Shown one piece after another: positions 1 to 12,913 of a stretch of 64,000 nucleotides of DNA. Origin of the DNA: an uncultured Dehalococcoidales bacterium (GTDB lineage Bacteria; Chloroflexota; Dehalococcoidia; Dehalococcoidales; E44-bin46); assembly GCA_964627215.1 (NCBI GenBank), contig CAZVIZ010000001.1, forward strand, positions 6,635 through 70,634, read 5' to 3'. The position numbers and the translations under genes are program-made. Position 1 is the stretch's first letter; every line of letters begins with the position of its first letter. The notes beneath the pieces were generated by a model that was not told where the DNA came from, did no database searches, and was given only the letters and a program-made list of their open reading frames with translations.

Positions 1-733
1 GGGGGACGAAGTTCATCACCCTTATCTGGTGAGCCCCCATGCGATGCATCTCCTCTATGGAGCAGGCTATGTCTTCCAGGGTTTCGCCCACCCCGGATAG
101 TATGCCTTCCTCTATCAGCACGCCCAACTGGGCGACCTTGTACTTCCGATTGAGTCTCTCATCGTAGCGCTGGTTCAGGCGGAGCTGATGGTAGAGCTTG
201 CGGTTGTGCGTCTCCTGGTAGCAGGCATACCACTCAACCCCGGTCTCAAAAAGCTCCTTGAGCACTGCGTCCGGCATTACGCCGGCGGATATCATCATGG
301 GCAGCGCTATATCCCGCCTGACCTGCTTCACCAGCTCCAGCAGGGGGGCGAAGCCGTCCTCCTTGCGGTAGAAGTAGGGGTCTTCGCCCATGGTCAGGTC
401 TAGGAGGTGGACGCCGGATTGGGCCAGCTCCTGGGCCGCGGCCATCACCTGCTCGGGCGTCTTGCGGTAACGCTCGCACAAGCGGTTTGAGCGGCGGTAG
501 GAGCAGAAGGCACAGTCGTTGCGACACCAGGTGGAGAAATACAGGAACCCATACAGGAACACGGCATCGCCGAAATGACGATGCCTTATGCTCCTCGCCG
601 TTTCAAAGAGGCGCTCTATATCTTCGCGACTCTCAAGGCTGAGTAAATGAAGTATCTCCTCCCGGCTCAATCGCTCTTCGGCATATGCTTTATCCAGTAT
701 CTCCTCTAAGCGAGAACGGGAGCTTTGACTCAT
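1..733 (-). CDS. pylB: Methylornithine synthase PylB (radical SAM), 3' end outside the window
   Basis: Manual translation from ATG 733, open to the window edge: FLYGFLYFSTWCRNDCAFCSYR (CxxxCxxC), GVHLLDLTMGED, WYACYQETHN, LIEEGILSGVGE, QIRVMNFVP, all PylB-like; pylS lies two genes upstream. Confidence 0.93.
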   Translation of the reverse strand, partial: MSQSSRSRLEEILDKAYAEERLSREEILHLLSLESREDIERLFETARSIRHRHFGDAVFLYGFLYFSTWCRNDCAFCSYRRSNRLCERYRKTPEQVMAAAQELAQSGVHLLDLTMGEDPYFYRKEDGFAPLLELVKQVRRDIALPMMISAGVMPDAVLKELFETGVEWYACYQETHNRKLYHQLRLNQRYDERLNRKYKVAQLGVLIEEGILSGVGETLEDIACSIEEMHRMGAHQIRVMNFVP

Positions 734-756
734 CACGGTATTCTTTTCTGCTCTGG

Positions 757-1398
757 TTATGACGTCAGTTCTTTTATCTTGTTTACGCCGTCCACTGCGC
801 TCTCGGCGTATGCGCTGGCACCTATGCGGTCGGCCCAGGGCTGGCTTACCGGTGCTCCACCGACGATGGTCTTGACGTCCATCCCGGCCTCGTTGAGCAT
901 ATCGATAAGTACCTTCTGGTTCTCCATAGTGGTGGTCAGCAGCGCGCTGGCTCCGACAACGTCGGCGTTAACTTCCTTGACCTTGTCTATGAATTTCTGC
1001 ATGGGCACGTCCCTGCCTATGTCATGAACCTCAAAGCCGTTGGCCATTAAGAACGATACTACAATGGATTTGCCGATGTCATGGACGTCGCCTTCTACGG
1101 TGCCGATGACGACGACCTTCTTCTTGGCCTCGCTCTCGCCCTTGGGCAGTGCGGCCTGACAGGCGGAGGAGCCGGCCTTCATAGCCTCGGCGGCCAGCAT
1201 GAGCTCGGGGAGGAATATCCTGCCCTTGTCGAACATATCGCCGACCTCGGTGATGCCGATGACGAAACCTTCATTAATTAGCAGAGCGGGGTCAACGCCG
1301 GCGTCGATCCCTTCCTTGGCTATGGCCTCTGCTGCGGCCTTGTCATAGTCAATGATAGCCTTCTTCGCCTTCTCTAAAATCGCTTTCTGGTCTGCCAT
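757..1398 (-). CDS. Methyltransferase cognate corrinoid protein (MtmC/MtbC/MttC family)
   Basis: B12 cap domain (FLPELMLAAEAM) plus DxHxxG motif GTVEGDVHDIGK, SALLTTTM and GGAP; AGGAGG RBS. Confidence 0.92.
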   Translation of the reverse strand: MADQKAILEKAKKAIIDYDKAAAEAIAKEGIDAGVDPALLINEGFVIGITEVGDMFDKGRIFLPELMLAAEAMKAGSSACQAALPKGESEAKKKVVVIGTVEGDVHDIGKSIVVSFLMANGFEVHDIGRDVPMQKFIDKVKEVNADVVGASALLTTTMENQKVLIDMLNEAGMDVKTIVGGAPVSQPWADRIGASAYAESAVDGVNKIKELTS

Positions 1399-1521
1399 TT
1401 AGTATAAACCCTCCTTTGCTGTTTTTGTATTCCACCACCACTCCCAGCACTAGCTTATCAGTAAACCGACCTTGGTGCTGTTTTTATGCCATAAGGTTTT
1501 CCCTCCTTAGAACCTTAAAGG

Positions 1522-2361
1522 TTATATGTTCAACCTGACTCCATCTAGGTATATGAGGCTTCTCGCCGTGCGCTGAATATTCTTATAGCCCTGCTTTATC
1601 ATCGCCAGTCTCTCCAACCCCATGCCTATGCCTACCCAGGGGTCGAATATACTCCAAGCATCATCCAGTGGATGAGGTCCCATCGCGGCCGAGCACAGCT
1701 CCGTGCCGGATTGGGATAAGACGTCCGTTGTCTCCCCGTATACGTCGCAATGGTCACTCACCACGCGGTAGTTATCTATGCCCACTGTATTCATCACTAT
1801 GCCGATAAGCTCCGTTAGCCGTTCCTTCCGGGACTCCAGAGGCAGGCCCATCTCCACCAGGTTCAGCATGGTGAACTCATTCAGGTGCTCACTGCCCTGG
1901 GTGTCCTTGCGGAAGCAGGGGCCCGCTTCGAAGATGCGTATAGGCTTGGGCCATAGGCGCCCCAGCCGCCTCATCATCTGGTATAGGTTAGGGGCCAGCA
2001 TGGGCCTTAAGCACTTGTTCTTTCCCTGCCAGAAGACCTGAGAGGTCAGAGGGCAGGAATCGGTGATGGTCATTTTCTCCAGGGAGTCCTTGGATATAAT
2101 GATGGGGGTGGAAACCTGTACAAAGCCCTCCTCCACAAGCCTGTCGGCGAGGGCACGCTCTATCTGGTACACGGAAGGACGGCGGTGGCTCAGGCGTAGG
2201 TCATTAGCGCGTTGCCTCTCCTCCTCCACCAGTTCCTTCTCCATCGCCTTGAAGCTCTCATCCCTCTCTTGGGCATCCTGGAATACCTTTTCCGCCCAAG
2301 TGATGTCAGCGTCCAACTCCCGCAGGCGTTGCTTCTGCGTCTCTGTTAAGCTAATGGACAT
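1522..2361 (-). CDS. pylS: Pyrrolysyl-tRNA synthetase catalytic subunit PylSc
   Basis: QRLREL N-terminus, SQVFW, LRPMLAPNLY, GPCFRK, HLNEFTMLNLVE, GLERL, YLDGVRLNI. Start moved to ATG 2361 because the longer track ORF runs through the promoter. Confidence 0.96.
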   Translation of the reverse strand: MSISLTETQKQRLRELDADITWAEKVFQDAQERDESFKAMEKELVEEERQRANDLRLSHRRPSVYQIERALADRLVEEGFVQVSTPIIISKDSLEKMTITDSCPLTSQVFWQGKNKCLRPMLAPNLYQMMRRLGRLWPKPIRIFEAGPCFRKDTQGSEHLNEFTMLNLVEMGLPLESRKERLTELIGIVMNTVGIDNYRVVSDHCDVYGETTDVLSQSGTELCSAAMGPHPLDDAWSIFDPWVGIGMGLERLAMIKQGYKNIQRTARSLIYLDGVRLNI

Positions 2362-2452
2362 AGCGATAAAACTCTTGTTATGGTTAGAGCCGAATCCCGA
2401 CCGGTGATTCCAAAAAAAGCAACACTTCCCCTTCCCGACAACATCCGCAGCA

Positions 2453-2481
2453 AGTATACCCCACCCCCTGTTAGCTGTCAA
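2453..2481 (-). promoter_or_regulatory. Sigma70-type promoter of the pyl operon
   Basis: TTGACA-N17-TATACT on the minus strand. Confidence 0.8.
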
Positions 2482-2530
2482 GATAACCCACCGGTGCAGC
2501 ATATGGGGCTGTGACGGCCTTGAAAAGACA

Positions 2531-2605
2531 TGGAGCGGAAGACGAGATTCGAACTCGCGACCTCCTCCTTGGCAAGGAGGCGTTCTACCGCTGAACTACT
2601 TCCGC
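2531..2605 (-). tRNA. tRNA-Gly(GCC)
   Basis: GCGGAAGTAGTTCAG...CTTGCCAAG...GTTCGAATC...CTTCCGCTCCA cloverleaf. Confidence 0.97.
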
Positions 2606-2619
2606 TCTTCTTAATCCTA

Positions 2620-2707
2620 TGGTGCCGGAGGGGAGATTTGAACTCCCACGCCCTTACGGGCACTAGCCCCTCAAGCTAGCGCGTCTACCAGCTTCCGCCA
2701 CCCCGGC
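2620..2707 (-). tRNA. tRNA-Leu(GAG)
   Basis: GCCGGGGTGGCGGAA...CTAGCTTGAGGGGCTAG, long variable arm, CCA end. Confidence 0.96.
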
Positions 2708-2712
2708 ATGAC

Positions 2713-2788
2713 TGGCAGGAGTGGGAGGACTCGAACCCCCGGCCTGCGGTTTTGGAGACCGCTGCTCTTCCAGCTGAGCTACACTCCT
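2713..2788 (-). tRNA. tRNA-Trp(CCA)
   Basis: AGGAGTGTAGCTCAG...GCGGTCTCCAAAACCGC...CCTGCCA. Confidence 0.97.
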
Positions 2789-2893
2789 ACCTGGATAATC
2801 ATTCTACCACAATTCGGGGGCAAAAATCAGGGGAGTTGCTGCGGCTCTATATCAACGGGTTTATGGCGTAATACTTTTGGTGTGTGGCGGGTT

Positions 2894-3802
2894 TTAGGAC
2901 ATTATAGACTTGGCATTAGCCCCTAGTATGTTTGCCTTGTCCTTTGGATGTATGTCCAGGCCCTCTATGGCGGCCACAGATGCTGCTATGTCGGGGTTGC
3001 CGGGGTAGTCGCTGCCCCACAGCACATGCTCCGCCCCCACCATATCCAGGGTGCACATAAGGGCATGGGGGGAGGTGGCGCCGCTGGTGTCCACGTATAT
3101 CTGCTTCAGGTACTGGCTGGGTAGGCCTTGGAGGTCCTCGGTGAAGTTCCGCCCTCTGAGCATCTTATATACGCTGTCAAACCTCTCTTTGATGAAGGGC
3201 ATCACCCCGCCGAAGTGAGCGAAGACGAATTTCAAGCCGGGGTGTTTCCTGAACACGCCGCCGGTAATAAGCCTGCCGATGCACATTGTGGTATCGAAGA
3301 CGAACTCTATCACCGGCGTTAGCAGGGGGTGATCCACCCTCTCCAGGCCGATGGGGCCGATGGTCTGGGGGTGGACGAAGATGGGTATGTCTTCCCTCTC
3401 CGCCCTCTGGTATAGGGATTCGAACAGGTCGTCGTCCAGGTAGATCCCCTCGAAGCTGGTGGCCAGGGATATAGCCTTGAAGCCCAGGGCCTCGGTGGCG
3501 CGCTGGAACTCCTCCGCCATGCTTTGAGGGTCGTCCAGAGGCAGTATGGCGGCGCCGACGAACCTGCCGGGGTATCGGGTCACCACGTCGGCTATGGCAT
3601 CGTTATAGACTTGCGCCACCTCTTTGGAGCCGCCCATCTGGCGGTAGGCGTCGCTGGTGGGGTAGAGCAGCAGGGCTTTATCTATGTTAAAGCGGTCCAT
3701 AAGCCCCAACTGTCCTTCTATATCTCCCCAGGCGGGGGAGAAGAAGTGCGCCTTGTCTATAATATCCTTGGGTAGCCAGTGGCTGTGTGCGTCGAACATC
3801 AC
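2894..3802 (-). CDS. Amidohydrolase_2 family protein (ACMSD/aromatic acid decarboxylase-like)
   Basis: DAHSH, FVHP, AHFGG and WGSDYP metal-binding motifs; last gene of the PKS operon. Confidence 0.85.
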   Translation of the reverse strand: MMFDAHSHWLPKDIIDKAHFFSPAWGDIEGQLGLMDRFNIDKALLLYPTSDAYRQMGGSKEVAQVYNDAIADVVTRYPGRFVGAAILPLDDPQSMAEEFQRATEALGFKAISLATSFEGIYLDDDLFESLYQRAEREDIPIFVHPQTIGPIGLERVDHPLLTPVIEFVFDTTMCIGRLITGGVFRKHPGLKFVFAHFGGVMPFIKERFDSVYKMLRGRNFTEDLQGLPSQYLKQIYVDTSGATSPHALMCTLDMVGAEHVLWGSDYPGNPDIAASVAAIEGLDIHPKDKANILGANAKSIMS

Positions 3803-4572
3803 TTCTCCGGGTGGGCTTGCTTGTAGGGGATTATGGGCTTGGTCCAGGGGGTGCGCTGGTTGATGACCGATATCTCCAGGGGGCAGACGTTGGCCGGCAC
3901 GGTGAGGGCGAACTTGACCGCATCGGCTATGGTGGTGCCCTTCATGAGGCGCTCCTTGTCCACCGATATCGCCTCAAGTCCTCCGGTGAGGGCGGTGTCA
4001 GTGACGCCGGGCATTATGGAGGTAACCTTGACGCCCGTGTCGCGTATCTCCCAGAAGAGCCCCTTGCCGAAGGACCTTAGTGCCCGCTTTAAGGAGGAAT
4101 ATACTATGAAGCCGCGGGGTGGAGGGTCAACTATTGTGGAGCCGGAGGTGATGTTTACCACCGTCCCCGCCTTGTTCTCAATGAAGTGGTTTATGATAAG
4201 CCTGGTGAGCATAACCGGGCCCAGGTAGTTGGTGGCCATCAGCTTGGGGATGTCCTGGGGGGGCTGCTCGTTGAAGGGGTGCTGGGAGCTTACTCCAGCG
4301 CTGTTTATGAGGGCGTCTATCCTGCCGAAGTGCTCTATGGCCTTGTTTACTAGATCCTCCAGGTCCTCCTGCTTGGTTACGTCGCAGGGGACGGGGAGTA
4401 TATCCACCTTGTGCTTATCTGCCAGGGAGTGCGCTACCTCGTTCAGTTTGTATGTCCCCCGCGCCGCCAGTGCCAGGTTCATTCCCTCCGCCGCAAGCGC
4501 TGTGGCTATGGCGTTGCCAATGCCCCTGGAGGCGCCGGTTACTATGGCGGTCTTGCCCTTTAGTTCGCTCAT
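3799..4572 (-). CDS. SDR oxidoreductase, putative polyketide ketoreductase
   Basis: TGASRGIG, NSAG and YSSLK (YxxxK); ketoreductase role inferred from context. Confidence 0.85.
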   Translation of the reverse strand: MSELKGKTAIVTGASRGIGNAIATALAAEGMNLALAARGTYKLNEVAHSLADKHKVDILPVPCDVTKQEDLEDLVNKAIEHFGRIDALINSAGVSSQHPFNEQPPQDIPKLMATNYLGPVMLTRLIINHFIENKAGTVVNITSGSTIVDPPPRGFIVYSSLKRALRSFGKGLFWEIRDTGVKVTSIMPGVTDTALTGGLEAISVDKERLMKGTTIADAVKFALTVPANVCPLEISVINQRTPWTKPIIPYKQAHPEK

Positions 4573-4576
4573 GGCC

Positions 4577-5020
4577 TTACCCCTTCTGGGCCTCTTTCTC
4601 TATAACCTCTTTAAATATCTTCATATTTTCCACGGAGTGCTTATTTATAAGCTCGGTGGCCTTGGCGTCATCAACCTTGGCGCCCTCGGCCATGGTGAAG
4701 AACTGTATCCAGGTCATTATCACACCTTCGGGGGTGGGGGTATAGAGCCAGATTAGCTTCATATACTGGAAGGGGAAGGTGGGCTCCATCTTCTGGGCAT
4801 AGGCGAAGTTGTAGTCCTTGAACAGCAGGCGGTATGACTGCCAGGAGGCGCCCTCGTTGTTGGTCAGCTGGAAGGTTAGCTTGTTGCCTTTCTTCTTCAC
4901 CACCTTGGCCTCGGTGTACTCGTCGCCGAAGAGCTCCGTCCAGCGCTCTATGTCGTTGGAGATGTCGAACACCAGGTCGTAGGGTGCGTTAATCACTATA
5001 GAATTTACTGTCTGCGCCAT
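4577..5020 (-). CDS. SRPBCC polyketide aromatase/cyclase (TcmN/WhiE-VI-like, monodomain)
   Basis: NSIVINAPYDLVFDISND..WTELF..EY, WQSYR, PFQYMKLIWLY, MTWIQFF. Confidence 0.88.
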   Translation of the reverse strand: MAQTVNSIVINAPYDLVFDISNDIERWTELFGDEYTEAKVVKKKGNKLTFQLTNNEGASWQSYRLLFKDYNFAYAQKMEPTFPFQYMKLIWLYTPTPEGVIMTWIQFFTMAEGAKVDDAKATELINKHSVENMKIFKEVIEKEAQKG

Positions 5021-5033
5021 TATTCCTCCTTGC

Positions 5034-5840
5034 TTAATCCAGAATAGCTACCACCCGCGCCCAGGCGGCGCCGGCGTTTTTTATCTTAACCGGGAAACAG
5101 GCTATCTTGAAGCCGTGGGGTTTAGGTATCTTATCCAGGTTGGCCAGTCTCTCCATATGGCAGTACTCCTTCTTCCTGCCATAGAAGTGCGCCGGCCACA
5201 GGTGGCCGGAGTCCCTGTCCTTCAGGTAGTCCTTCACCATGGCGGGTAGGGGGCGATCCAGGCTGAAGGTGTCTATGCCGATTACCCTGACCCCCTGTTC
5301 GGTTAGATATGCCACCGCTTCCGGGCTCATGGCGGGGAAGCGGACGTAGTACTCGCGCTTACCCCAAAGTTTATCGGTGCCGGTATATATGAGGACGATA
5401 TCGGCGGGCTTTATGGTGTAGTTGATTTTCTCCAGGGCCTTTTTTATGTCTGCGTTGGTGATGGCCTGGCCGGGCTTTTTATGGGATAGGTCCAGCACCA
5501 CGCCGTCTGCGTAGCACCAATCCAGGGGCACGTCCTCTATCTTCATGGCCGCCTTGCCCTCGCACGAGGGGCCGTAGTGGTAGGGGGCGTCCATATGGGT
5601 GCCGCTGTGGACGGTGGCCGTTACCCACTCCAGGGAGAGGAACAGGCCGTCCTTGAAGCTGTCCTTGTCTATTCGCTCCTTGCCTAAAGCGCGCTTTATA
5701 ATGCCCTTTATGCCCTGAGACTTAGCCCAAAGCCTGCCCAGCTTGTCGCCGCCACTGCGGTGCTCCCAGCGCGTTATTTTTATGGGGTGGGTCTCCGGGG
5801 CGGCGTCGTCCAGGGGCAGGCTGAGGTCTATGATGTTCAC
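5034..5840 (-). CDS. Cyclase family protein (DpsY/OxyN-like, kynurenine formamidase fold)
   Basis: IIDLS N-terminus, HSGTHMDAPYH, GIDTFSLD, ERLANL and WARVVA. Confidence 0.88.
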   Translation of the reverse strand: MNIIDLSLPLDDAAPETHPIKITRWEHRSGGDKLGRLWAKSQGIKGIIKRALGKERIDKDSFKDGLFLSLEWVTATVHSGTHMDAPYHYGPSCEGKAAMKIEDVPLDWCYADGVVLDLSHKKPGQAITNADIKKALEKINYTIKPADIVLIYTGTDKLWGKREYYVRFPAMSPEAVAYLTEQGVRVIGIDTFSLDRPLPAMVKDYLKDRDSGHLWPAHFYGRKKEYCHMERLANLDKIPKPHGFKIACFPVKIKNAGAAWARVVAILD

Positions 5841-6076
5841 TTTGCCAGCCTGTCTTCCACTACCTTGAGCACATCGCCAATGCTGCCCCCTGTGGAGATA
5901 GTGCCGTCGCCTATCTTGATGTTGAACTCCTTTTCCAGAGCTATAACCAGCTCCACCACCTCCAGGGAGTCCATCTCCAGGTCTTTCTTAAGGTTGGCCT
6001 GGGGGGTTATTTCCCCCGGCTTCATGTCGAAGGCCTCCACCAGAATCGCCTTTATCTTTTCCTCAACATTAGCCAC
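5837..6076 (-). CDS. Acyl carrier protein
   Basis: 79 aa, acidic, with the DLEMDSLEVVEL phosphopantetheine attachment motif. Confidence 0.93.
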   Translation of the reverse strand: MANVEEKIKAILVEAFDMKPGEITPQANLKKDLEMDSLEVVELVIALEKEFNIKIGDGTISTGGSIGDVLKVVEDRLAK

Positions 6077-6081
6077 GGCTT

Positions 6082-7290
6082 CTAGCTCCTTTCTACAGCC
6101 AAAACAGCGTTTATGCCCCCGCGTCCGCGGGAGATTATAATTGCCTTGCGTATATCAGCTTCACGAGCCTCGTTGGGCACACAGTCCAGGTCGCATTCGG
6201 GGTCATCTGTTTTGTGGTTTATGGTGGGGGGAATGATGCCGTTGCGCATCGCCAGCAGGGTGGTGATGACGTCCACCGCTCCCGATGCCCCCAGCATGTG
6301 TCCGAACATGGACTTGGGGGCGCTCACGGGTATGTTGCGCTTGCTGCCGAAGACCTCCTTTATGGCCCTGGCCTCGCTCAAGTCTCCTATGCGGGTGGCT
6401 ATGCCGTCGGCGCAGACGTAGTCTATATCCTCTGGCTTATAGCCGGCCATTTTAAGGGCGGCTCTTATTGTATCGGCCAGCTCTTTGCCTGTGGGGTTGG
6501 GGGTGATGCGGTGCGCCCCGTCGCAGGTGGAGCTGTAGCCGGTGATGAAGCCGTATATATCCGTGCCTCTCTTGAGCGCGTTCTCCTCGCTCTCCAGCGT
6601 GATAAGCCCCGCCCCCTCGCTGACCACGAAGCCGTCCCTGTCTTTATCAAAGGGGCGGTAGGGCCCGTGAGAGATGGAGCCCTCAGTGGAGCAGCACAGT
6701 AGTGCATAGGGGCTTATGGGCGCCTCCGTGCCGCCGGCCAGAGCGATGCTTATCTTCTTCTGGTCCACCACGTTTGCGGCGTATCCTATGGCCATCAACG
6801 CGCTGGCCTTATCGGATATCATCGTCTTGCTGTATCCCTTTATGCCGTATAGTATGGATATCTGTCCCTGGGGAGCGGCGGGGAACCAGGCGCTGGCCAT
6901 ATAGGGGCTTACTCCCTGCCTGCCTTCCACGTACAGGTCTCTGAGTTCGGTCTCGGCATACAGCCAACCACCCAGGGCGTTGCCCAGGAAGACGCCCACG
7001 TTGTAGGGGTCCTCTTTATCCAGGTCTATGGCGGCGTCCTTTATGGCGTGGTCGGTGGCGATGAGGCTGAATACGGAGAAGCTGTCCATCTTCTTCAAAA
7101 GGCGGAAGGACAGGCTGCCGGTGTCCAGGTCCTCCACCTGACCGGCTATCTGCGAGGGGTAGAGAGAGGCGTCGAAGCGGGTGATGGGAGAGACGAAGGA
7201 CTTGCCCTGCTTGACACCATTCCAGAAGGCCTCTTTACCCACTCCCGGTGGGGCGACTATGCCTAATCCGCTTATAGCTACTCTGTTCAC
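6082..7290 (-). CDS. Type II PKS chain-length factor (KS-beta)
   Basis: KS fold without the catalytic Cys (ISDKASA); SPYMASAWFPAAPQGQISI, YRPFD and CADG are CLF-like. GTG 7290 overlaps the KS stop (GTGA) and has a GGAG RBS. Ends in TAG. Confidence 0.88.
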   Translation of the reverse strand: MNRVAISGLGIVAPPGVGKEAFWNGVKQGKSFVSPITRFDASLYPSQIAGQVEDLDTGSLSFRLLKKMDSFSVFSLIATDHAIKDAAIDLDKEDPYNVGVFLGNALGGWLYAETELRDLYVEGRQGVSPYMASAWFPAAPQGQISILYGIKGYSKTMISDKASALMAIGYAANVVDQKKISIALAGGTEAPISPYALLCCSTEGSISHGPYRPFDKDRDGFVVSEGAGLITLESEENALKRGTDIYGFITGYSSTCDGAHRITPNPTGKELADTIRAALKMAGYKPEDIDYVCADGIATRIGDLSEARAIKEVFGSKRNIPVSAPKSMFGHMLGASGAVDVITTLLAMRNGIIPPTINHKTDDPECDLDCVPNEAREADIRKAIIISRGRGGINAVLAVERS

Positions 7291-8549
7291 TGTGGGCTCC
7301 ACCTGCTGAGCGTCATAGAGGAGTGGATGCCGGAAAAGCCGCTGCTGGTCTTTATCATATGGTCCACGTGTTTCTCCCTAGCCTTGTTAGGTATGTAGTC
7401 CAGGTCGCATTGGGGGTCGGGGACCTCCTGGTTTATGGTGGGGGGTAGGACGTCGTTTTCAAATATCAGGGCGTCGGCCACTAGCTCTATGCTGTTTGCG
7501 GCAGCCAGGGGGTGGCCTATCATGGATTTCAGTGAGCTTACGGGGACATCATATGCCCTCTTGCCGAGGACCTTCTTGTACCCGTTGGTCTCAAACACGT
7601 CGTTCTGCCTGGTTGAGCTGCCGTGGGCGTTTACGTAGTCTATCAGGTCGGGGTTCATATCGGCGTCCTTCAGCGCCAGCCTCATGGATACGGCCATCTC
7701 CTCGCCCTCGGAGGGCAGATCGGTCATATGGAAGGCGTTGTTGCAGGTGCCGAAGCCGGTTATCTCACAGTAGATATGGGCGCCGCGCTTAAGGGCGTGG
7801 GTTAGCTCCTCCACCACCAGTATGCCGCATCCCTCGGAGAGGACGAAGCCGTCTCTGGCTCCATCGAAGGGGCGAGATGCCTTTTCCGGCTCGTCGTTCC
7901 TCGTGGAGAGGACGTTTATCACGTCGAAGGCGGCAAAGGTTATGGGGCACAGCGGTGCCTCGGAGGCGCCGGTTATCATCACGTCTGCCTCTCCGTGCTG
8001 TATAAGCTCAAAGGAGTAGCCCACGGCGTCAGTGCCCGCGGTGCACCCTGTAGAGACGGTGGTGCATATGCCCTTGAAGCCCTGCTTGGCGGCTATCTCG
8101 CTGGAGGGGGTGTTGAACATAGAGGCGTCATAGAGGTGAGGTCTGGCCTTGCGGGGGTCTATGGGTTCCGTTCCGCCGTTGGTCACGCGCAGGAACTCCT
8201 CCTCCATATAGCGGGTGCCGCAGATGGCGTTGGCCAGGGAGACGCCGACGCGGCTGCGATCCACGCCGTTCAGGTGGAGCTTGGAGTCCTCCATGGCCTC
8301 ATGGGACGCGGCCACGGCGAATTGAACATAGCGGTCCATCCTCTCGGCATCCTCAGCGGTGAGGCCGTGAGACGCGGGGTCGAAGTCCGTTACCTGGGCT
8401 GCTATCTGAGAGTGGAACTGGGATACGTCAAAATCCTCAACCCTCTTAACGCCGGACCTGCCGCTGGACATGCCCTCCCAGAAGGCATCCTTGCCTATTC
8501 CATTGGGGGATATAACCCCCAGACCGGTTACGACCACTCTATTTTTCAT
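7287..8549 (-). CDS. Type II PKS ketosynthase (KS-alpha)
   Basis: Catalytic Cys in VSTGCTAGTDA, NAHGSST, KSMIGHP, DLDYIPN; immediately followed by CLF and ACP. Confidence 0.92.
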   Translation of the reverse strand: MKNRVVVTGLGVISPNGIGKDAFWEGMSSGRSGVKRVEDFDVSQFHSQIAAQVTDFDPASHGLTAEDAERMDRYVQFAVAASHEAMEDSKLHLNGVDRSRVGVSLANAICGTRYMEEEFLRVTNGGTEPIDPRKARPHLYDASMFNTPSSEIAAKQGFKGICTTVSTGCTAGTDAVGYSFELIQHGEADVMITGASEAPLCPITFAAFDVINVLSTRNDEPEKASRPFDGARDGFVLSEGCGILVVEELTHALKRGAHIYCEITGFGTCNNAFHMTDLPSEGEEMAVSMRLALKDADMNPDLIDYVNAHGSSTRQNDVFETNGYKKVLGKRAYDVPVSSLKSMIGHPLAAANSIELVADALIFENDVLPPTINQEVPDPQCDLDYIPNKAREKHVDHMIKTSSGFSGIHSSMTLSRWSPQ

Positions 8550-9156
8550 TTTCCTCCACCCTTCTTGCCGAGAATCTTATCTTAGCCCCGTCGGGGCAGG
8601 TGATGCGGTCGTTGCTGATACCGTCCTTGGAGAAGGGGAAGACGGCCCCGAAGTTCAGGGCGAACAGCACCGGGAAGATGGCGTTGTAGGCCGCCCCGCA
8701 GAAGCCGCCGGGCAGCTTCAAGCCCGTGAAGGTGAATTTATCCCCCGGTTTGTAGCCGAAGACGCAGTGGCCGATAACCTCCTCCACGCCTATCTCCAGT
8801 TTCTTAGGGCTGGGCTTGTAGTCCTTGGGTTTGGGTTTGAACTCCACCTCCCCCGATGGTGTCAGCACCTCGGTGAGGAACTCCACCCCGCCAGCGTCGG
8901 GGCAGAAGGTGCGCATGGAGCGGGTATTTTCGTTGAAGGGGAACTCCGCCCCGAAGGAGAGCGCGTATAAGACTGGGAAAAGCACCGTGCTAGCCCCCTG
9001 ACAGAAGTTCTCAGGGACGTGGGTGAAGTCCTTTAGTATGAACTGGTCACCCTCTTTGTAGCCCCGATAGCACCTCCCCGCCAACTTGGCCACGGTTACC
9101 CTCAAGGGTACATCGTGGCTGTCGTTGCTCATTGTCTTTTCGGAATCCTTTGCCAT
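8539..9156 (-). CDS. Tandem TIGR04076-like domain protein
   Basis: Two internal repeats of the form G.C..GYK.GD.F...P..FC..A...FP.L.AL.FG..FPF...CPD. Confidence 0.75.
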   Translation of the reverse strand: MAKDSEKTMSNDSHDVPLRVTVAKLAGRCYRGYKEGDQFILKDFTHVPENFCQGASTVLFPVLYALSFGAEFPFNENTRSMRTFCPDAGGVEFLTEVLTPSGEVEFKPKPKDYKPSPKKLEIGVEEVIGHCVFGYKPGDKFTFTGLKLPGGFCGAAYNAIFPVLFALNFGAVFPFSKDGISNDRITCPDGAKIRFSARRVEENEK

Positions 9157-9159
9157 TGG

Positions 9160-10158
9160 TTAACCCCCAACCTCGCTTATAATCTCTTGTGGGGAGAGAA
9201 ATCCCCCTCCCTGCTCCACCTTGTGCACCATCTCCACCAGCCTGCGGTTCAATGGCGCCGGTGTGCCTATCTCATCACCTAAACGGACTACCTCCCCGTT
9301 GAAGTAGTCTATCTCCGATGGTTTGCCTCGCTTTATACTCTGCAGTATGGAGCCGTATAGCGGCTCTCGGCTTAAATTAGTCATCATTTGGGAGAATATA
9401 CGGCTCGCTTCCTCTAGGGGCATCTCCGTAAGCCCCTTAATCCTCTCCTTTGGAAAATCGGGCAAAGACGTTAATTTTATACCTGCTTGGCCTACAACTG
9501 TCAATGCCTCTCCCAGAAGTCTTATGCTTATGCGGCACAGATCCACGCTTGCGAAGGTCTCCTGCATGCTGAGTCCTGTAAGAGCCGGCAGGCAGTTATT
9601 CATGTTGAGGAACAACTTCAGCCATTTCATTCCCATTATGTTGGGGGTGGGGTGGACGGTGAAAGCCGTGCTCAGCACGGCGGCGGCGGATTTAAGCCCA
9701 TCGTCCTCGGGGGCGAAGGCCCTGCCCAGCGCCCAGCCGCCCTCGAAGTTGTGCACCACGCAGCCCGGTTCTAAGTAAGTGGAGCCGAACAGCACCACGC
9801 TTGATATTATTCTGCCCCGGTCTATGATCCCCGCCAGCATCTCCTCCGCTCGTACCCCGTTTTGCACAGTGAGCACGTAGGGGTCCTTAAGCGCTGGCAG
9901 GTTTAGCTCCACGGCGGGGGTGATGTCCTGCGTCTTCACCGAGAGCACCACCAGGTCTGCGCCCGGCTCAAGTTTTTCCACAGCGTTTACCTTAACCGTT
10001 TTCTCGCCCCGCACCCCGCTTATTTTGAGGCCGTTCGCCTTTATGGCGGCGATGTCCTTCTCCCTTGCCGCCAGCGCCACGTCCACGCCCTTATCGGCAA
10101 GGTATGCGGCCACCAGGCCGCCTATGGCCCCTGCTCCTATAACTGCTACGCGGTTTAT
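9160..10158 (-). CDS. Ketopantoate reductase (ApbA/PanE) family protein with probable ATA start
   Basis: VKTQD, QNGV, KWLKLFLN, SILQSI and SEIDYFNGEVV motifs. The Rossmann motif RVAVIGAGAIGG lies upstream of the track's GTG 10113, in frame with ATA 10158. Confidence 0.85.
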   Translation of the reverse strand: MNRVAVIGAGAIGGLVAAYLADKGVDVALAAREKDIAAIKANGLKISGVRGEKTVKVNAVEKLEPGADLVVLSVKTQDITPAVELNLPALKDPYVLTVQNGVRAEEMLAGIIDRGRIISSVVLFGSTYLEPGCVVHNFEGGWALGRAFAPEDDGLKSAAAVLSTAFTVHPTPNIMGMKWLKLFLNMNNCLPALTGLSMQETFASVDLCRISIRLLGEALTVVGQAGIKLTSLPDFPKERIKGLTEMPLEEASRIFSQMMTNLSREPLYGSILQSIKRGKPSEIDYFNGEVVRLGDEIGTPAPLNRRLVEMVHKVEQGGGFLSPQEIISEVGG

Positions 10159-12026
10159 TTGGTCAACCCCAGGCTGGCGATAGTCTCGTCGGTCGGCCTG
10201 CCCTGGCTGTCCCAGCCATGTAAATCGTAATATTCGTCCAGCATGCCCTCAAAGCTGTCTCGGTCCAGCATTGTCCTGGCTTGGTCGGGCTTGAGCCCTT
10301 CCTTCCACACAAAAGGCTCGAAGTAGCGCTGTGGAGGCAGGTCGTCCTTGCGGGTGATGCCCTCCCTGGTCAGGAACATTCGTTCCAGGGTTGTTATCCT
10401 CCGCCCCACGTCAAACACCTCGTCGGGGGTTATCTCTATTCCGGTGGTAGAGGCTATTAGCTTGGAGAAAAAGGCGTAATCGAATACCCCCGGCTGGCAG
10501 GCCAGGGCTATTTGCTTGCATGTACCCAGTGCGTCGAACAGGGAGAGGTATATCTCGCGCCACCAGATCACCCTGCCCTTGCCCGTGTAGCTCTTGGGGT
10601 CGGAGGCGACCCTCCCGCCGTATAGAGCGGTCAGCTCTTCCTCGGGGAGGTTGAATGCCTCCCAGGTGGGTCTGGCGCGGAGGTGGTCCGAACCCCTGGA
10701 GGCTACGGCGTTGCCCAGGGCATAGGCGGGGAAGTAGCGCAGGTCCACCGGGTCCGACTGGGGGAGGTATTTGGTCCACATCATGCGCTTGGCCGTCTCC
10801 TGTCCCAGCGTTTCCACCGCCTCTTTGGCGCCGTCGGCCAGAATGCTGCCGAAGCCGTGGCGGTGGGCGATGTGGTGTATAAGCTCTATTACGGTTTCCC
10901 CATCCCCCCACTTAAGCTCCAGGCCGCCGGTTGTGTCGCGGTTTATTACGCCGTCCTGATACAGTTCTATAGCCCAGGCGATGATGTTGGCCGTAGAGCT
11001 GGCGTCTAATCCGTAGCGGTTCAATAGCTCGTTCATCTTTAATACGGGAGCCAGCTTGCCTATGCCCAGCATGGGCCCGAAGCTGGCGAAGGTGGTGTAT
11101 TCCGGCCCCTCGCTCTCTATTTTGTCCACCTTGTAACGGTGCTGGCAGCCTACGGGGCAGGAGAAGCAGCCTTCCCGTCCCTGATAGTACTTGTCCTTGA
11201 GTATCTGGGGAGAGACGTCCTCATTTTTGTTGAAGGCGGCGGAGAGGCCGTTATAGGCCCGTCCCATCTTTATGCGGCGGTTCACCAGCAGGTATAGGTA
11301 GGGGGATCCCAGGTCCTTGAGCATCTTTACCAAGCGTTCCTCGTTAAGCTTGGCCTGAAGACCCTTTATGAGGGCGCTGAAGGCCTTGGGGTCGTGGGGC
11401 TTTATGTCGGCGTCCCCCTCCACCACCACCGCCTTGAGCCGTTTGGAGCCCATAAGGCAGCCTAGGCCGGTGCGGGCGGCGGCGTTCTTCTTGCGGTTTA
11501 TTATGCAGGCGAATCTCACCAGGTTCTCGCCCGCCTGGCCTATTGATATCGCCTGGCTTTGTGGGCCGTGGCGCTCGTCCAGGGTGGCGTTGGTGTCCGT
11601 GGTTGAACCGCCCCACAGGTCGCTGGCGTCCTCTATGCTTATGCCGTCAGGGGTAACGTGTAGATAGACCGGTGTCTCAGCCTGGCCGGTTACTACCAGG
11701 TAGTCTATGCCGGTTCGCTTCATATGCGCCCCGAAATAGCCGCCGATGTTGGCGTCTCCCAGCAGCCCTGTCTCAGGAGATTTGGCCGAGATGTTGGCAC
11801 GCGCGGCGCTTATGCCCTTTAATCCGGTTAAAAGCCCGGGCCCGATGATGAGGGGATTAGCGGGGGATAGGGGGGTGGTTTGGGGGGTTACGTGGCGATA
11901 GAGGAGATACATATTCACGCCCCGACCGCCCAGGAGCTTTCTGGTTACCTCGTCGGGGACATTTTGAATGTCCGCCTGCCTTGTGGTCAGGTCTAGTCTA
12001 GCAACCCTTTGAGGGAGCATCGTCAT
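10155..12026 (-). CDS. Aldehyde:ferredoxin oxidoreductase (W/Mo-pterin WOR family)
   Basis: LGGRG, KSPETG, AARTGLGCLMGSKRLKA, CFSCPVGC and DALGTC 4Fe-4S ligands, RGSDH, YYDLHGWD..GRP. Confidence 0.93.
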   Translation of the reverse strand: MTMLPQRVARLDLTTRQADIQNVPDEVTRKLLGGRGVNMYLLYRHVTPQTTPLSPANPLIIGPGLLTGLKGISAARANISAKSPETGLLGDANIGGYFGAHMKRTGIDYLVVTGQAETPVYLHVTPDGISIEDASDLWGGSTTDTNATLDERHGPQSQAISIGQAGENLVRFACIINRKKNAAARTGLGCLMGSKRLKAVVVEGDADIKPHDPKAFSALIKGLQAKLNEERLVKMLKDLGSPYLYLLVNRRIKMGRAYNGLSAAFNKNEDVSPQILKDKYYQGREGCFSCPVGCQHRYKVDKIESEGPEYTTFASFGPMLGIGKLAPVLKMNELLNRYGLDASSTANIIAWAIELYQDGVINRDTTGGLELKWGDGETVIELIHHIAHRHGFGSILADGAKEAVETLGQETAKRMMWTKYLPQSDPVDLRYFPAYALGNAVASRGSDHLRARPTWEAFNLPEEELTALYGGRVASDPKSYTGKGRVIWWREIYLSLFDALGTCKQIALACQPGVFDYAFFSKLIASTTGIEITPDEVFDVGRRITTLERMFLTREGITRKDDLPPQRYFEPFVWKEGLKPDQARTMLDRDSFEGMLDEYYDLHGWDSQGRPTDETIASLGLTK

Positions 12027-12042
12027 CTCTATAGACCGTGGA

Positions 12043-12226
12043 TATCCCTAATCCGTGCCAGTGGATGGAGGATAGCCTTTTAAACCTGGGACGATTCAAT
12101 CACAGCACAATACCCTATGCCGAAATCCGGGAAACTAGAGAGCAGGCTTGTTGCAACCCATATAACCTGCGCTCCGAATATCGCGACTTCGGTCAACCAT
12201 TGGTCTTACCGAAAGTAAATCCCAGG
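12043..12226 (-). ncRNA. Candidate structured cis-regulatory leader of the AOR/PKS operon
   Basis: Closing stem 12220-12226/12085-12091 encloses four hairpins, and a further hairpin lies at 12043-12074; family not recognised. Confidence 0.5.
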
Positions 12227-12234
12227 GTGGTTGG

Positions 12235-12263
12235 AGTATAACCGCCGTGGTGGTTTTTGTCAA
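12235..12263 (-). promoter_or_regulatory. Sigma70-type promoter of the AOR/PKS operon
   Basis: TTGACA-N17-TATACT on the minus strand. Confidence 0.8.
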
Positions 12264-12280
12264 CCTGTGGGTCAGATGTA

Positions 12281-12913
12281 TTACAAGTCGCCGAAGACGT
12301 TGGGGGCCAGCCTTGCCATGATGCGGCGTATCTCCTCGGCCAGGGCCCTTATCTCAGGCAGCGCCCGCCTGCCTGCGCGCAGCTTGATGAAGTGCCTTAT
12401 CTCCCGGAAGTTCATCGTCATCACCACCTGCGTCTCGCAGGAGCCAGGCAGCACGTAGCGGGCTATCTCCGCCTTTACGCCCATATCTAAAAGCTTCTTG
12501 TAGGCCTCCCAGGCGTCATCCATGGCCTTGCGATAAGCCTTTAGGCCGTCTTGGCCCGCCCTCTCCTCCACCTCCGGCGGCAGGATATACCTTGGTTCCG
12601 TCTCCTTGCAGTAGCGCTGACTGCGCTGGCTGTAGCTGGCCAGGCGGTGGCGCACCAGCTCGTGGGTCAGCACGCGGCTGGCCCTGATGTAGAAGCTGGC
12701 TGAGGCGTGCTCTATGATGGACTCGTGGCCCACTTCTATCCACTCGGCTATGCGGTGCGGTATGGTGCCCATCTTGTCTGTGGAGTCCCAGCACAGCCTG
12801 CCGGCGTATTCTATCAGCTGTTCGGAGGGGGCGGTCTGGGGGGCGCCGCCCAGCTCCTGGGGGAGGCCGGTTACGGCCAGCAGCTTGACCTCTATATCGT
12901 AGCCTTCACTCAT
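12281..12913 (-). CDS. thyX: FAD-dependent thymidylate synthase
   Basis: GHESIIEH, HELVRHRLASYSQRSQRY and ARYVLP motifs. Confidence 0.96.
   Translation of the reverse strand: MSEGYDIEVKLLAVTGLPQELGGAPQTAPSEQLIEYAGRLCWDSTDKMGTIPHRIAEWIEVGHESIIEHASASFYIRASRVLTHELVRHRLASYSQRSQRYCKETEPRYILPPEVEERAGQDGLKAYRKAMDDAWEAYKKLLDMGVKAEIARYVLPGSCETQVVMTMNFREIRHFIKLRAGRRALPEIRALAEEIRRIMARLAPNVFGDL

Follow-up and report, generated by a model that had tools for sequence, protein, structure and literature searches.

The window analysed here is a stretch of 64,000 nucleotides (positions 6635-70634 of contig C1, CAZVIZ010000001.1) from G000, a metagenome-assembled genome (MAG) of 929 kb in 20 contigs which belongs to an uncultured marine bacterium of the order Dehalococcoidales (GCA_964627215.1) whose genome measures about 1 Mb. 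Completeness is estimated at 87.8% and contamination at 0.05%. A gene cluster for pyrrolysine (Pyl, one-letter code O) begins, on the minus strand, in the first 2.5 kb of the window and continues on the same strand into L002, the 6.6 kb of C1 to the left of the window. In the following, G labels stand for genomes, L labels for loci or pieces, C for contigs, and f and g for GTDB family and genus codes within the order. Profile matches were judged against the curated cut-offs of the families (TIGR, NF, and Pfam), which are given in brackets behind the scores. The features of the cluster within the window are, in window positions:

2713-2788, minus strand: tRNA-Trp(cca), from the tRNA search
2620-2707, minus strand: tRNA-Leu(gag), from the tRNA search
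2531-2605, minus strand: tRNA-Gly(gcc), from the tRNA search, on the same strand as pylSc; the array Trp-Leu-Gly (2531..2788) lies directly upstream of the pyl cluster
2453..2481, minus strand: sigma-70-like promoter match TTGACA-17-TATACT, in agreement with the consensus at 11 of 12 positions, a match in sequence alone
1522..2361, minus strand: pylSc, catalytic subunit of a split pyrrolysyl-tRNA synthetase, 279 amino acids, open reading frame (ORF) open to 2502; TIGR02367 PylS_Cterm 342.5 bits (178)
757..1398, minus strand: methylamine-type corrinoid protein, 213 amino acids, probably MtbC; TIGR02370 pyl_corrinoid 231.9 bits (215.3)
2..736, minus strand: first 245 codons of pylB, methylornithine synthase (radical S-adenosylmethionine enzyme); TIGR03910 347 bits for the fragment, which runs off the left edge to G000:C1:6255

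To the left of the window the cluster goes on as follows, in positions of L002:

6255-7370, minus strand: whole pylB; TIGR03910 492 bits (348)
5107-6258, minus strand: pylC; TIGR03909 372.6 bits (248)
4267-5094, minus strand: pylD; TIGR03911 231.4 bits (150)
4171-4242, minus strand: pylT, tRNA-Pyl with CUA anticodon; ARAGORN call tRNA-Pyl (cta)
3791-4141, minus strand: pylSn, separate N-terminal tRNA-binding subunit of the synthetase; TIGR03912 126.3 bits (51)
2872-3675, minus strand: pterin-binding, putative methyltetrahydrofolate:corrinoid methyltransferase; Pfam Pterin_bind 87.6 bits (25.5)
2085-2843, minus strand: protein of 252 amino acids resembling the activation domain of MetH; match to methionine-synthase entry 1j6r (E 3.5e-8) and a weak one to the MetH activation domain
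114-2060, minus strand: RACo-type corrinoid activase; Pfam Fer2, RACo_linker, Raco_middle, and RACo_C_ter all present

From the promoter-like site to the activase gene the features follow each other in the order listed, with gaps of -4 to 123 nucleotides. A sequence-only reading of the first 2.5 kb had described a promoter, a pylSc encoding the catalytic domain only, an MtxC-type corrinoid protein and a pylB running off the edge, all starting just beyond the 3' end of a tRNA-Gly. Each of these is in place, the promoter as a near-consensus match rather than as evidence of function. That reading had proposed to look further left for the remaining pyl genes, and pylC, pylD, pylSn, and pylT indeed lie directly there. 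In place of the ramA which it had named as well, the cluster holds the gene of a corrinoid activase of the RACo type, which reaches no more than 119 bits with the RamA model TIGR04270 (500).

PylSc aligns with the PylSc structures from Desulfitobacterium (3dsq and 2zni, E 4e-92) over residues 5-279 of the 279 amino acid form. The promoter-like site (2481-2453) falls within the longest pylSc reading frame (1522-2502); as the alignment in addition begins at residue 5 of the shorter form, translation probably starts with the ATG at 2361, which would leave a leader of 91 nucleotides. Four promoter-like sites occurred in the 3 kb scanned, compared with 1.6 +/- 1.4 in shuffled sequences, and a terminator-like site was not found on the minus strand in positions 1-3000 of the window. 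The corrinoid protein matches both PF02607 (B12-binding_2) and PF02310 (B12-binding), contains DVHDIG as its DxHxxG motif, and scores above the cut-off of the methylamine-cognate subfamily TIGR02370 (MtmC, MtbC, and MttC). The pylT sequence folds to a cloverleaf in which acceptor and D stems are one base apart, the D loop has 5 nucleotides and the anticodon stem is long, features which we take to be hallmarks of tRNA-Pyl. A scan of the 9.2-kb cluster against Rfam (E<=1) yielded no tRNA-model match at pylT and no riboswitch, including no cobalamin riboswitch before the corrinoid gene.

The enzymes for which such a system would be maintained are encoded elsewhere in the genome. A whole-genome family search detected one gene each for the monomethylamine, dimethylamine and trimethylamine methyltransferases MtmB, MtbB, and MttB, with exactly one TAG inside each family match. 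All three genes, together with their in-frame TAG codons, had been named by the sequence-only reading as what should be sought. When the TAG is read as pyrrolysine, full-length proteins result with the residue at O203 of MtmB, O356 of MtbB, and O352 of MttB. O203 of MtmB aligns with residue 202 of structure 1tv2 and O352 of MttB with residue 334 of structure 7xcm, and PMC9842639 gives these two residues as Pyl202 and Pyl334. The TAG of MtbB, an enzyme with no solved structure to compare the position with, is spanned by the family match. The mtmB gene is located on C14 (17.5 kb) and has its own corrinoid gene in front of it; mtbB and mttB lie side by side on C17 (11 kb), which ends 104 nucleotides after mttB. 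A gene for a urease alpha subunit (G000:C14:15161-16870, L086) was observed 2.6 kb from the mtmC-mtmB pair. The TAG-containing mttB is the only gene of the MttB family in the assembly. The Pyl-bearing relatives G004, G006, and G138 additionally carry TAG-free genes of the MttB superfamily (e.g., G138:C1:60276-61622 and G006:C89:156-1538) and up to five corrinoid protein genes, which suggests from the sequences that quaternary-amine methyltransferases occur beside the Pyl enzymes in these organisms.

The genome thus encodes PylSc, PylSn, a tRNA-Pyl with CUA anticodon, PylBCD, and target proteins with in-frame UAG, by which a member of the split type is recognized. We are therefore confident, as far as genes can tell, that the window holds the front end of a complete pyrrolysine operon of bacterial type, with a split PylS, in an uncultured marine Dehalococcoidales bacterium, and the system is real and complete and probably works. 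The gene content, its intactness and order, the positions of the TAG codons and the conservation in relatives are plain observations; co-transcription, actual insertion of pyrrolysine, assignment of substrates and the fate of the methyl groups are what we infer from them.

Several points weigh against so straightforward an interpretation. The three methyltransferase genes reside on the small binned contigs C14 and C17 and not on C1, and a 16S rRNA gene was not found in the 88% complete MAG, whose lineage was read from how its relatives are titled. Specific protein models were missed by several components: the best one for the corrinoid protein, MtbC (NF041607), gave 233.3 bits, below its equivalog cut-off of 350; the pterin-binding methyltransferase stayed just below the cut-off of NF005719 (243.5 bits against 259); and the activase remained below both named equivalogs, RamA (119 bits, as above) and AcsV (NF040756, 483 bits against 800), so that it is of the RACo type and by these models a member of neither equivalog. 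Owing to these missed cut-offs, the assignments of substrates and partners rest on gene neighbourhood. Finally, TAG is an ordinary stop codon in this genome. In a crude greedy ORF call, which is not a gene prediction and which gave 847 ORFs covering 90% of the genome, 386 ended with TAA, 310 with TGA, and 151 with TAG (17.8%), and read-through would consequently have to be tolerated or regulated. Such a layout was observed at G000:C5:22697-25432 (L092), where secY ends with TAG, adk in the same frame likewise ends with TAG, and map then follows in frame. Read-through by tRNA-Pyl would fuse these essential proteins, which implies that suppression must be tolerated or limited.

If the system works in the way its parts suggest, PylB, PylC, and PylD would make pyrrolysine from two lysines, and PylSc together with PylSn would charge it onto the tRNA with the CUA anticodon, which would then read the single in-frame UAG of MtmB, MtbB, and MttB. 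These enzymes would methylate the Co(I) form of their corrinoid proteins from mono-, di-, and trimethylamine, respectively, the pterin-binding methyltransferase would move the methyl group on to tetrahydrofolate, and RACo would re-reduce corrinoid which has become oxidised. Together with RACo, the 252 amino acid protein would provide the cluster with a module resembling MetH reactivation besides an ATP-dependent activase. In L016 and L017, orthologues of this protein (55-64% identity) are encoded at the same place, next to the genes for the methyltransferase and RACo, and L022 and L109 hold one among other neighbours. Methyltetrahydrofolate might finally enter the Wood-Ljungdahl pathway, either to be oxidised to CO2 or to be condensed to acetyl-CoA. 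A full gene set for this pathway is found on contig C2 (FdhA, two MetF, AcsE, AcsC, AcsB, carbon monoxide dehydrogenase, AcsD, FolD, and Fhs), which also encodes NuoEF-like proteins, a second RACo, and HdrA/MvhD-like proteins. Placement of the methyl acceptor gene within the operon would couple the supply of pyrrolysine to the hardware of methyl transfer. The suggestion that this host uses a 22-amino-acid code for methylamine demethylation is in this way supported by the complete pyl set and the three TAG-bearing methyltransferase genes, at the level of predicted function.

That the host is a Dehalococcoidia-like organism had been guessed correctly from the letters of the window. The closest relatives of its PylB among species-representative genomes are encoded by seven MAGs with 62-69% identity, five of them titled Dehalococcoidales and one, G005, from the same family as the window; the next best has 54%. 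In a quick maximum likelihood tree of 52 PylB rows, from which rows with fewer than 280 aligned residues or with stops had been excluded, G000 falls within a clade of ten rows from Dehalococcoidales-titled or untitled MAGs of the families f1, f27, and f49, with a value of 100 in the Shimodaira-Hasegawa-like approximate likelihood ratio test (SH-aLRT). Wider neighbours in this tree are Bacillota and Thermodesulfobacteriota, and the tree leaves the sister group of the clade unfixed. Within the order, PylSc exceeds its cut-off in 10 of 363 species genomes, G000 included, and in 6 of 131 genomes of high quality. These occurrences comprise five of the ten genomes of f1, two of the three of f29, one of the four of f27, and two genomes of f49, with one of five in genus g3. 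Pyrrolysine is thus rare and patchy in the order and common in the family of the window.

The corrinoid gene that separates pylSc from pylB had been regarded as an insertion. While its position is as described, it is no private feature of this genome. The order pylSc-corrinoid-pylB, continued by pylC-pylD-pylT-pylSn, occurs in G000, G001, G004, G006, G138, and G350 as well as in L019 and L022, and is cut at a contig end in L020; listed by locus, the same gene order is found in L016, L018, L019, L020, L021/L105, L022, L104, and L007. Altogether at least nine genomes of the Dehalococcoidales clade and three MAGs titled Thermodesulfobacteriota (L026, L028, and L064) share the layout, which due to this recurrence has to be seen as typical of the lineage and not as peculiar to G000. 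G005 has a different arrangement with pylSc-pylB-pylC and, further on, mtbC-mtbB, and has mtbB, mtmB, and mttB together with the pyl genes on one contig of 75.5 kb.

How the cluster came to its present place was also considered. The position next to the tRNA genes had been taken as compatible with an acquired island, and there is something to be said for this. Family members without Pyl have the tRNAs Ala-Arg-Trp-Leu-Gly-Cys in one array with tRNA-Cys 4-16 nucleotides after tRNA-Gly. In G000 this array is broken twice, once by a block of 10 kb that separates Arg(cct) from Trp and once by the pyl cluster, which follows Gly, and tRNA-Cys is 209 kb away. At the other end, the first 53 nucleotides of C1 are the exact reverse complement of C4:1-53 and lie inside a tRNA-Leu(cag). 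The two contigs can accordingly be joined, so that RACo would be followed 58 nucleotides on by tRNA-Leu(cag)-Arg(gcg)-Val(tac), as is the case in the relative L016, and the cluster would have tRNA arrays on both sides. DNA metagenomes with matching sequence are from seawater or other marine samples of four studies, the best of which may be the source sample itself. In contigs from three of four runs (X1, X3, and X4), tRNA-Leu(cag) is connected through its 5' end to the 3' end of tRNA-Gly, and the roughly 9.1 kb in between are skipped. The patchy occurrence in the order, the family and genus g3 fits gain by transfer as well. A recent acquisition at tRNA-Gly, as opposed to long residence, nevertheless appears unlikely to us. 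The cluster has a GC content of 0.581, compared with 0.574 +/- 0.021 for 9-kb windows of the genome, which is the 60th percentile. The insertion site with its flanking genes is shared with relatives that have no more than 62-77% identity in their proteins, and the PylB sequences from three GTDB families group in a single clade, which speaks for an old event followed by losses. As to the skipping contigs, their shorter side extends to just 22 letters, 6-32 other letters stand between the two tRNAs, and they were mapped at 90% likeness; organisms other than this one, in which the tRNAs are conserved, may be their source. Neither an integrase nor a direct repeat nor a piece of a tRNA turned up at the borders of the cluster, in the course of work in which no search was aimed at them. 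Insertion into a tRNA array hence remains plausible as an event which is old and shared, its age being indicated by the ordinary GC content and by the site common to relatives. Of the island idea, the flanking tRNA arrays and the tRNA-Gly-tRNA-Cys order of kin without Pyl stand; the recency does not.

A bolder proposal is that the 9.1-kb string (pylSc, mtbC, pylBCD, pylT, pylSn, the pterin-binding methyltransferase, the activation protein, and RACo) forms a self-contained transferable cassette between two tRNA genes, which is present or absent among co-occurring marine Dehalococcoidales. The contigs that skip the cluster, present in three of four runs, the patchy distribution and the recurrence of the layout in MAGs titled Thermodesulfobacteriota can be cited for it. 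We offer it tentatively and would rather expect it to fail than to hold. If true, the 22-amino-acid code would be an accessory trait subject to gain and loss in genomes of about 1 Mb, which would count among the smallest that encode pyrrolysine.

A further question concerns the partner of the corrinoid protein encoded in the operon. It might serve another methyl donor such as glycine betaine, a different quaternary amine or methanol, or might be a shared acceptor and not the partner of one methylamine enzyme. The missed MtbC cut-off (233 against 350 bits) and a score of 184 with the MtgC model favour a protein outside methylamine metabolism, and the assembly has two corrinoid genes for three Pyl methyltransferases. 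The neighbourhood in relatives tells otherwise. The orthologue in G005 (74% identity) lies 39 nucleotides upstream of mtbB, a gene which in G138 is located immediately next to the pyl cluster; for these two reasons the protein is probably MtbC, the methyl acceptor of the dimethylamine methyltransferase. Three relatives (G005:C3, G004:C12, and G001:C17) have a corrinoid gene about 90 nucleotides after mttB. As C17 of G000 breaks off 104 nucleotides after mttB, a third corrinoid gene is probably missing because of a gap in the assembly. A single corrinoid protein for both MtbB and MttB was considered and dropped on the same grounds. Since, moreover, the sole gene of the MttB family in the assembly has the TAG, there is no non-Pyl MttB in it which could act as partner, and a donor other than a methylamine is quite improbable.

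Still less credit can be given to the notion of a decaying relic in which UAG is read as stop only and the methyltransferases are truncated. The frequent use of TAG as stop and the loss of Pyl from many relatives would be in line with decay. However, all eleven genes of the cluster, pylT included, and the three methyltransferase genes are open but for the single TAG, in MtmB and MttB, the two for which a structure could be aligned, this TAG occupies the catalytic position, the family match continues downstream of each TAG to the end, and orthologues are conserved in several relatives, which taken together renders decay very improbable. The search for in-frame extensions of at least 89 codons brought up 19 ORFs ending with TAG, three of which are the methyltransferases. 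When the other 16 were compared with Pfam as 15 read-through translations, none of the 15 gave a family match crossing the TAG; five had no match, and ten turned out to be adjacent genes that share the frame or to have one domain, situated upstream of the TAG. Candidates for further Pyl proteins among TAG-ending ORFs were on this basis rejected as same-frame neighbours or unassignable ORFs.

That the pyl contig was binned or assembled wrongly from an organism of the Bacillota or Thermodesulfobacteriota, as a MAG with such wider neighbours in the PylB tree might invite one to think, is hardly credible given that the cluster sits on the largest contig of the genome (251 kb) in a bin with so little contamination, that synteny with MAGs titled Dehalococcoidales extends over its junction and flanks, and that a 3.7-kb contig of run X1 spans pylC into tRNA-Gly, even though X1 may be the source sample. 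Chimerism of the contig at the tRNA junction, which had been raised as a possible objection, is ruled out by the same synteny: L016 and L018 share the array Trp-Leu-Gly abutting pylSc, the tRNA-Gly/pylSc junction, and the five genes beyond (amidohydrolase, SDR, SRPBCC, cyclase, and ACP, listed below) with 61-77% identity.

Beyond the tRNA array, and outside the Pyl system, the window continues with a block at 2894-12913, in which family searches recognized the following:

2894..9156, minus strand: neighbouring cluster of amidohydrolase, short-chain dehydrogenase/reductase (SDR), SRPBCC cyclase-like protein, cyclase, acyl carrier protein (ACP), two ketosynthases, and one ORF without family
3799-4572, minus strand: SDR
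4577-5020, minus strand: SRPBCC polyketide-cyclase-like protein
5034-5840, minus strand: cyclase
5837-6076, minus strand: ACP
6082-7302 and 7287-8549, minus strand: two ketosynthases
10155-12026: AOR-family oxidoreductase
12281-12913: ThyX

The genes at 3799-8549 resemble a type II polyketide synthase set which adjoins the pyl cluster; genes of this kind are unusual where the whole genome measures about 1 Mb. The neighbouring cluster is syntenic from the amidohydrolase to the ACP in the Pyl-bearing L016 and L018. For the amidohydrolase no close orthologue was found in five family members without Pyl (best identity 30%). The block lies between tRNA-Arg(cct) and tRNA-Trp, which are neighbours in the Pyl-lacking G009.

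What the locus adds is a Pyl-dependent route from methylamines to methyltetrahydrofolate which appears complete gene by gene in the streamlined genome of a marine Dehalococcoidales bacterium. No reductive dehalogenase above the cut-off was found in G000 (best 58.6 bits against 160), yet the host has the full Wood-Ljungdahl pathway. This points to methylamines, which arise from the breakdown of osmolytes, as a substrate for an abundant uncultured group that would compete for them with methylotrophic methanogens. In this clade the gene for the methyl acceptor travels inside the operon for code expansion. What is known about how pyrrolysine works is left unchanged.

Among bacterial systems the textbook order of the genes is pylT-pylSc-pylB-pylC-pylD-pylSn, as in Desulfitobacterium hafniense and other Bacillota and Desulfobacterota. 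It is one order of many, as it was found complete in only 5 of 53 PylB loci (L025, L027, L030, L047, and L065). The cluster of G000 shares with the D. hafniense type the separate pylSc and pylSn genes, pylBCD, the CUA tRNA and a PylSc aligning end to end, as well as the presumed transfer of the methyl group to tetrahydrofolate and not to coenzyme M via a pterin-binding methyltransferase. It differs in that pylT is placed between pylD and pylSn and not before pylSc, in the corrinoid gene between pylSc and pylB, and in the continuation of the string by the genes of the methyltetrahydrofolate methyltransferase, the MetH-activation-like protein and RACo.

Closer in kinship is the system of Chloroflexi. 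Mukai et al. (2017, mBio, PMC5424206) describe genes for pylSc and pylSn of a Chloroflexi type and a Pyl-bearing "Dehalococcoides" lineage, which has phylum, class, and a split PylRS in common with G000. SepRS, sought owing to that report, was not found in the 88% complete G000 (best 24 bits, cut-off 381), in which it differs from the "Dehalococcoides" lineage of that text. As far as this source extends, pyrrolysine in the group is already reported, and the gene order of G000 is typical of its clade; the novelty which the sequence-only reading had assumed is lowered to that extent, and its own reservation, that Pyl might be routine in the lineage, applies to the family (five of ten) and not to the order as a whole (10 of 363). 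Apart from PMC5424206, a literature search on Pyl and methylamines in Dehalococcoidia and Chloroflexota gave nothing relevant, most subscription journals being outside its reach, and nothing bearing on this was found in passages of PMC10654671 and PMC11237511.

With the methylamine system of Methanosarcina (MtmBC, MtbBC, MttBC, RamA, and MtbA) the genome has in common the three Pyl methyltransferases, with UAG at the same residue in MtmB and MttB as aligned, and cognate corrinoid proteins of the same TIGR02370 family. In contrast to Methanosarcina, the predicted methyl acceptor is tetrahydrofolate instead of coenzyme M, the activase is of the RACo type instead of RamA, and PylS is split. The order Dehalococcoidales itself contains a second type in family f29 (G037 and G084), which likewise possesses a complete split system with pylT. 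It is organized differently, however, as pylT-pylSn-pylSc and, at some distance, pylC-pylD, with pylB beside mtmB; its PylSc is 48-49% identical, and the PylB sequences of the f29 pair form a separate branch of the tree (SH-aLRT 100). Gene order, low PylSc identity and the separate PylB branch suggest that the f29 type arose separately.

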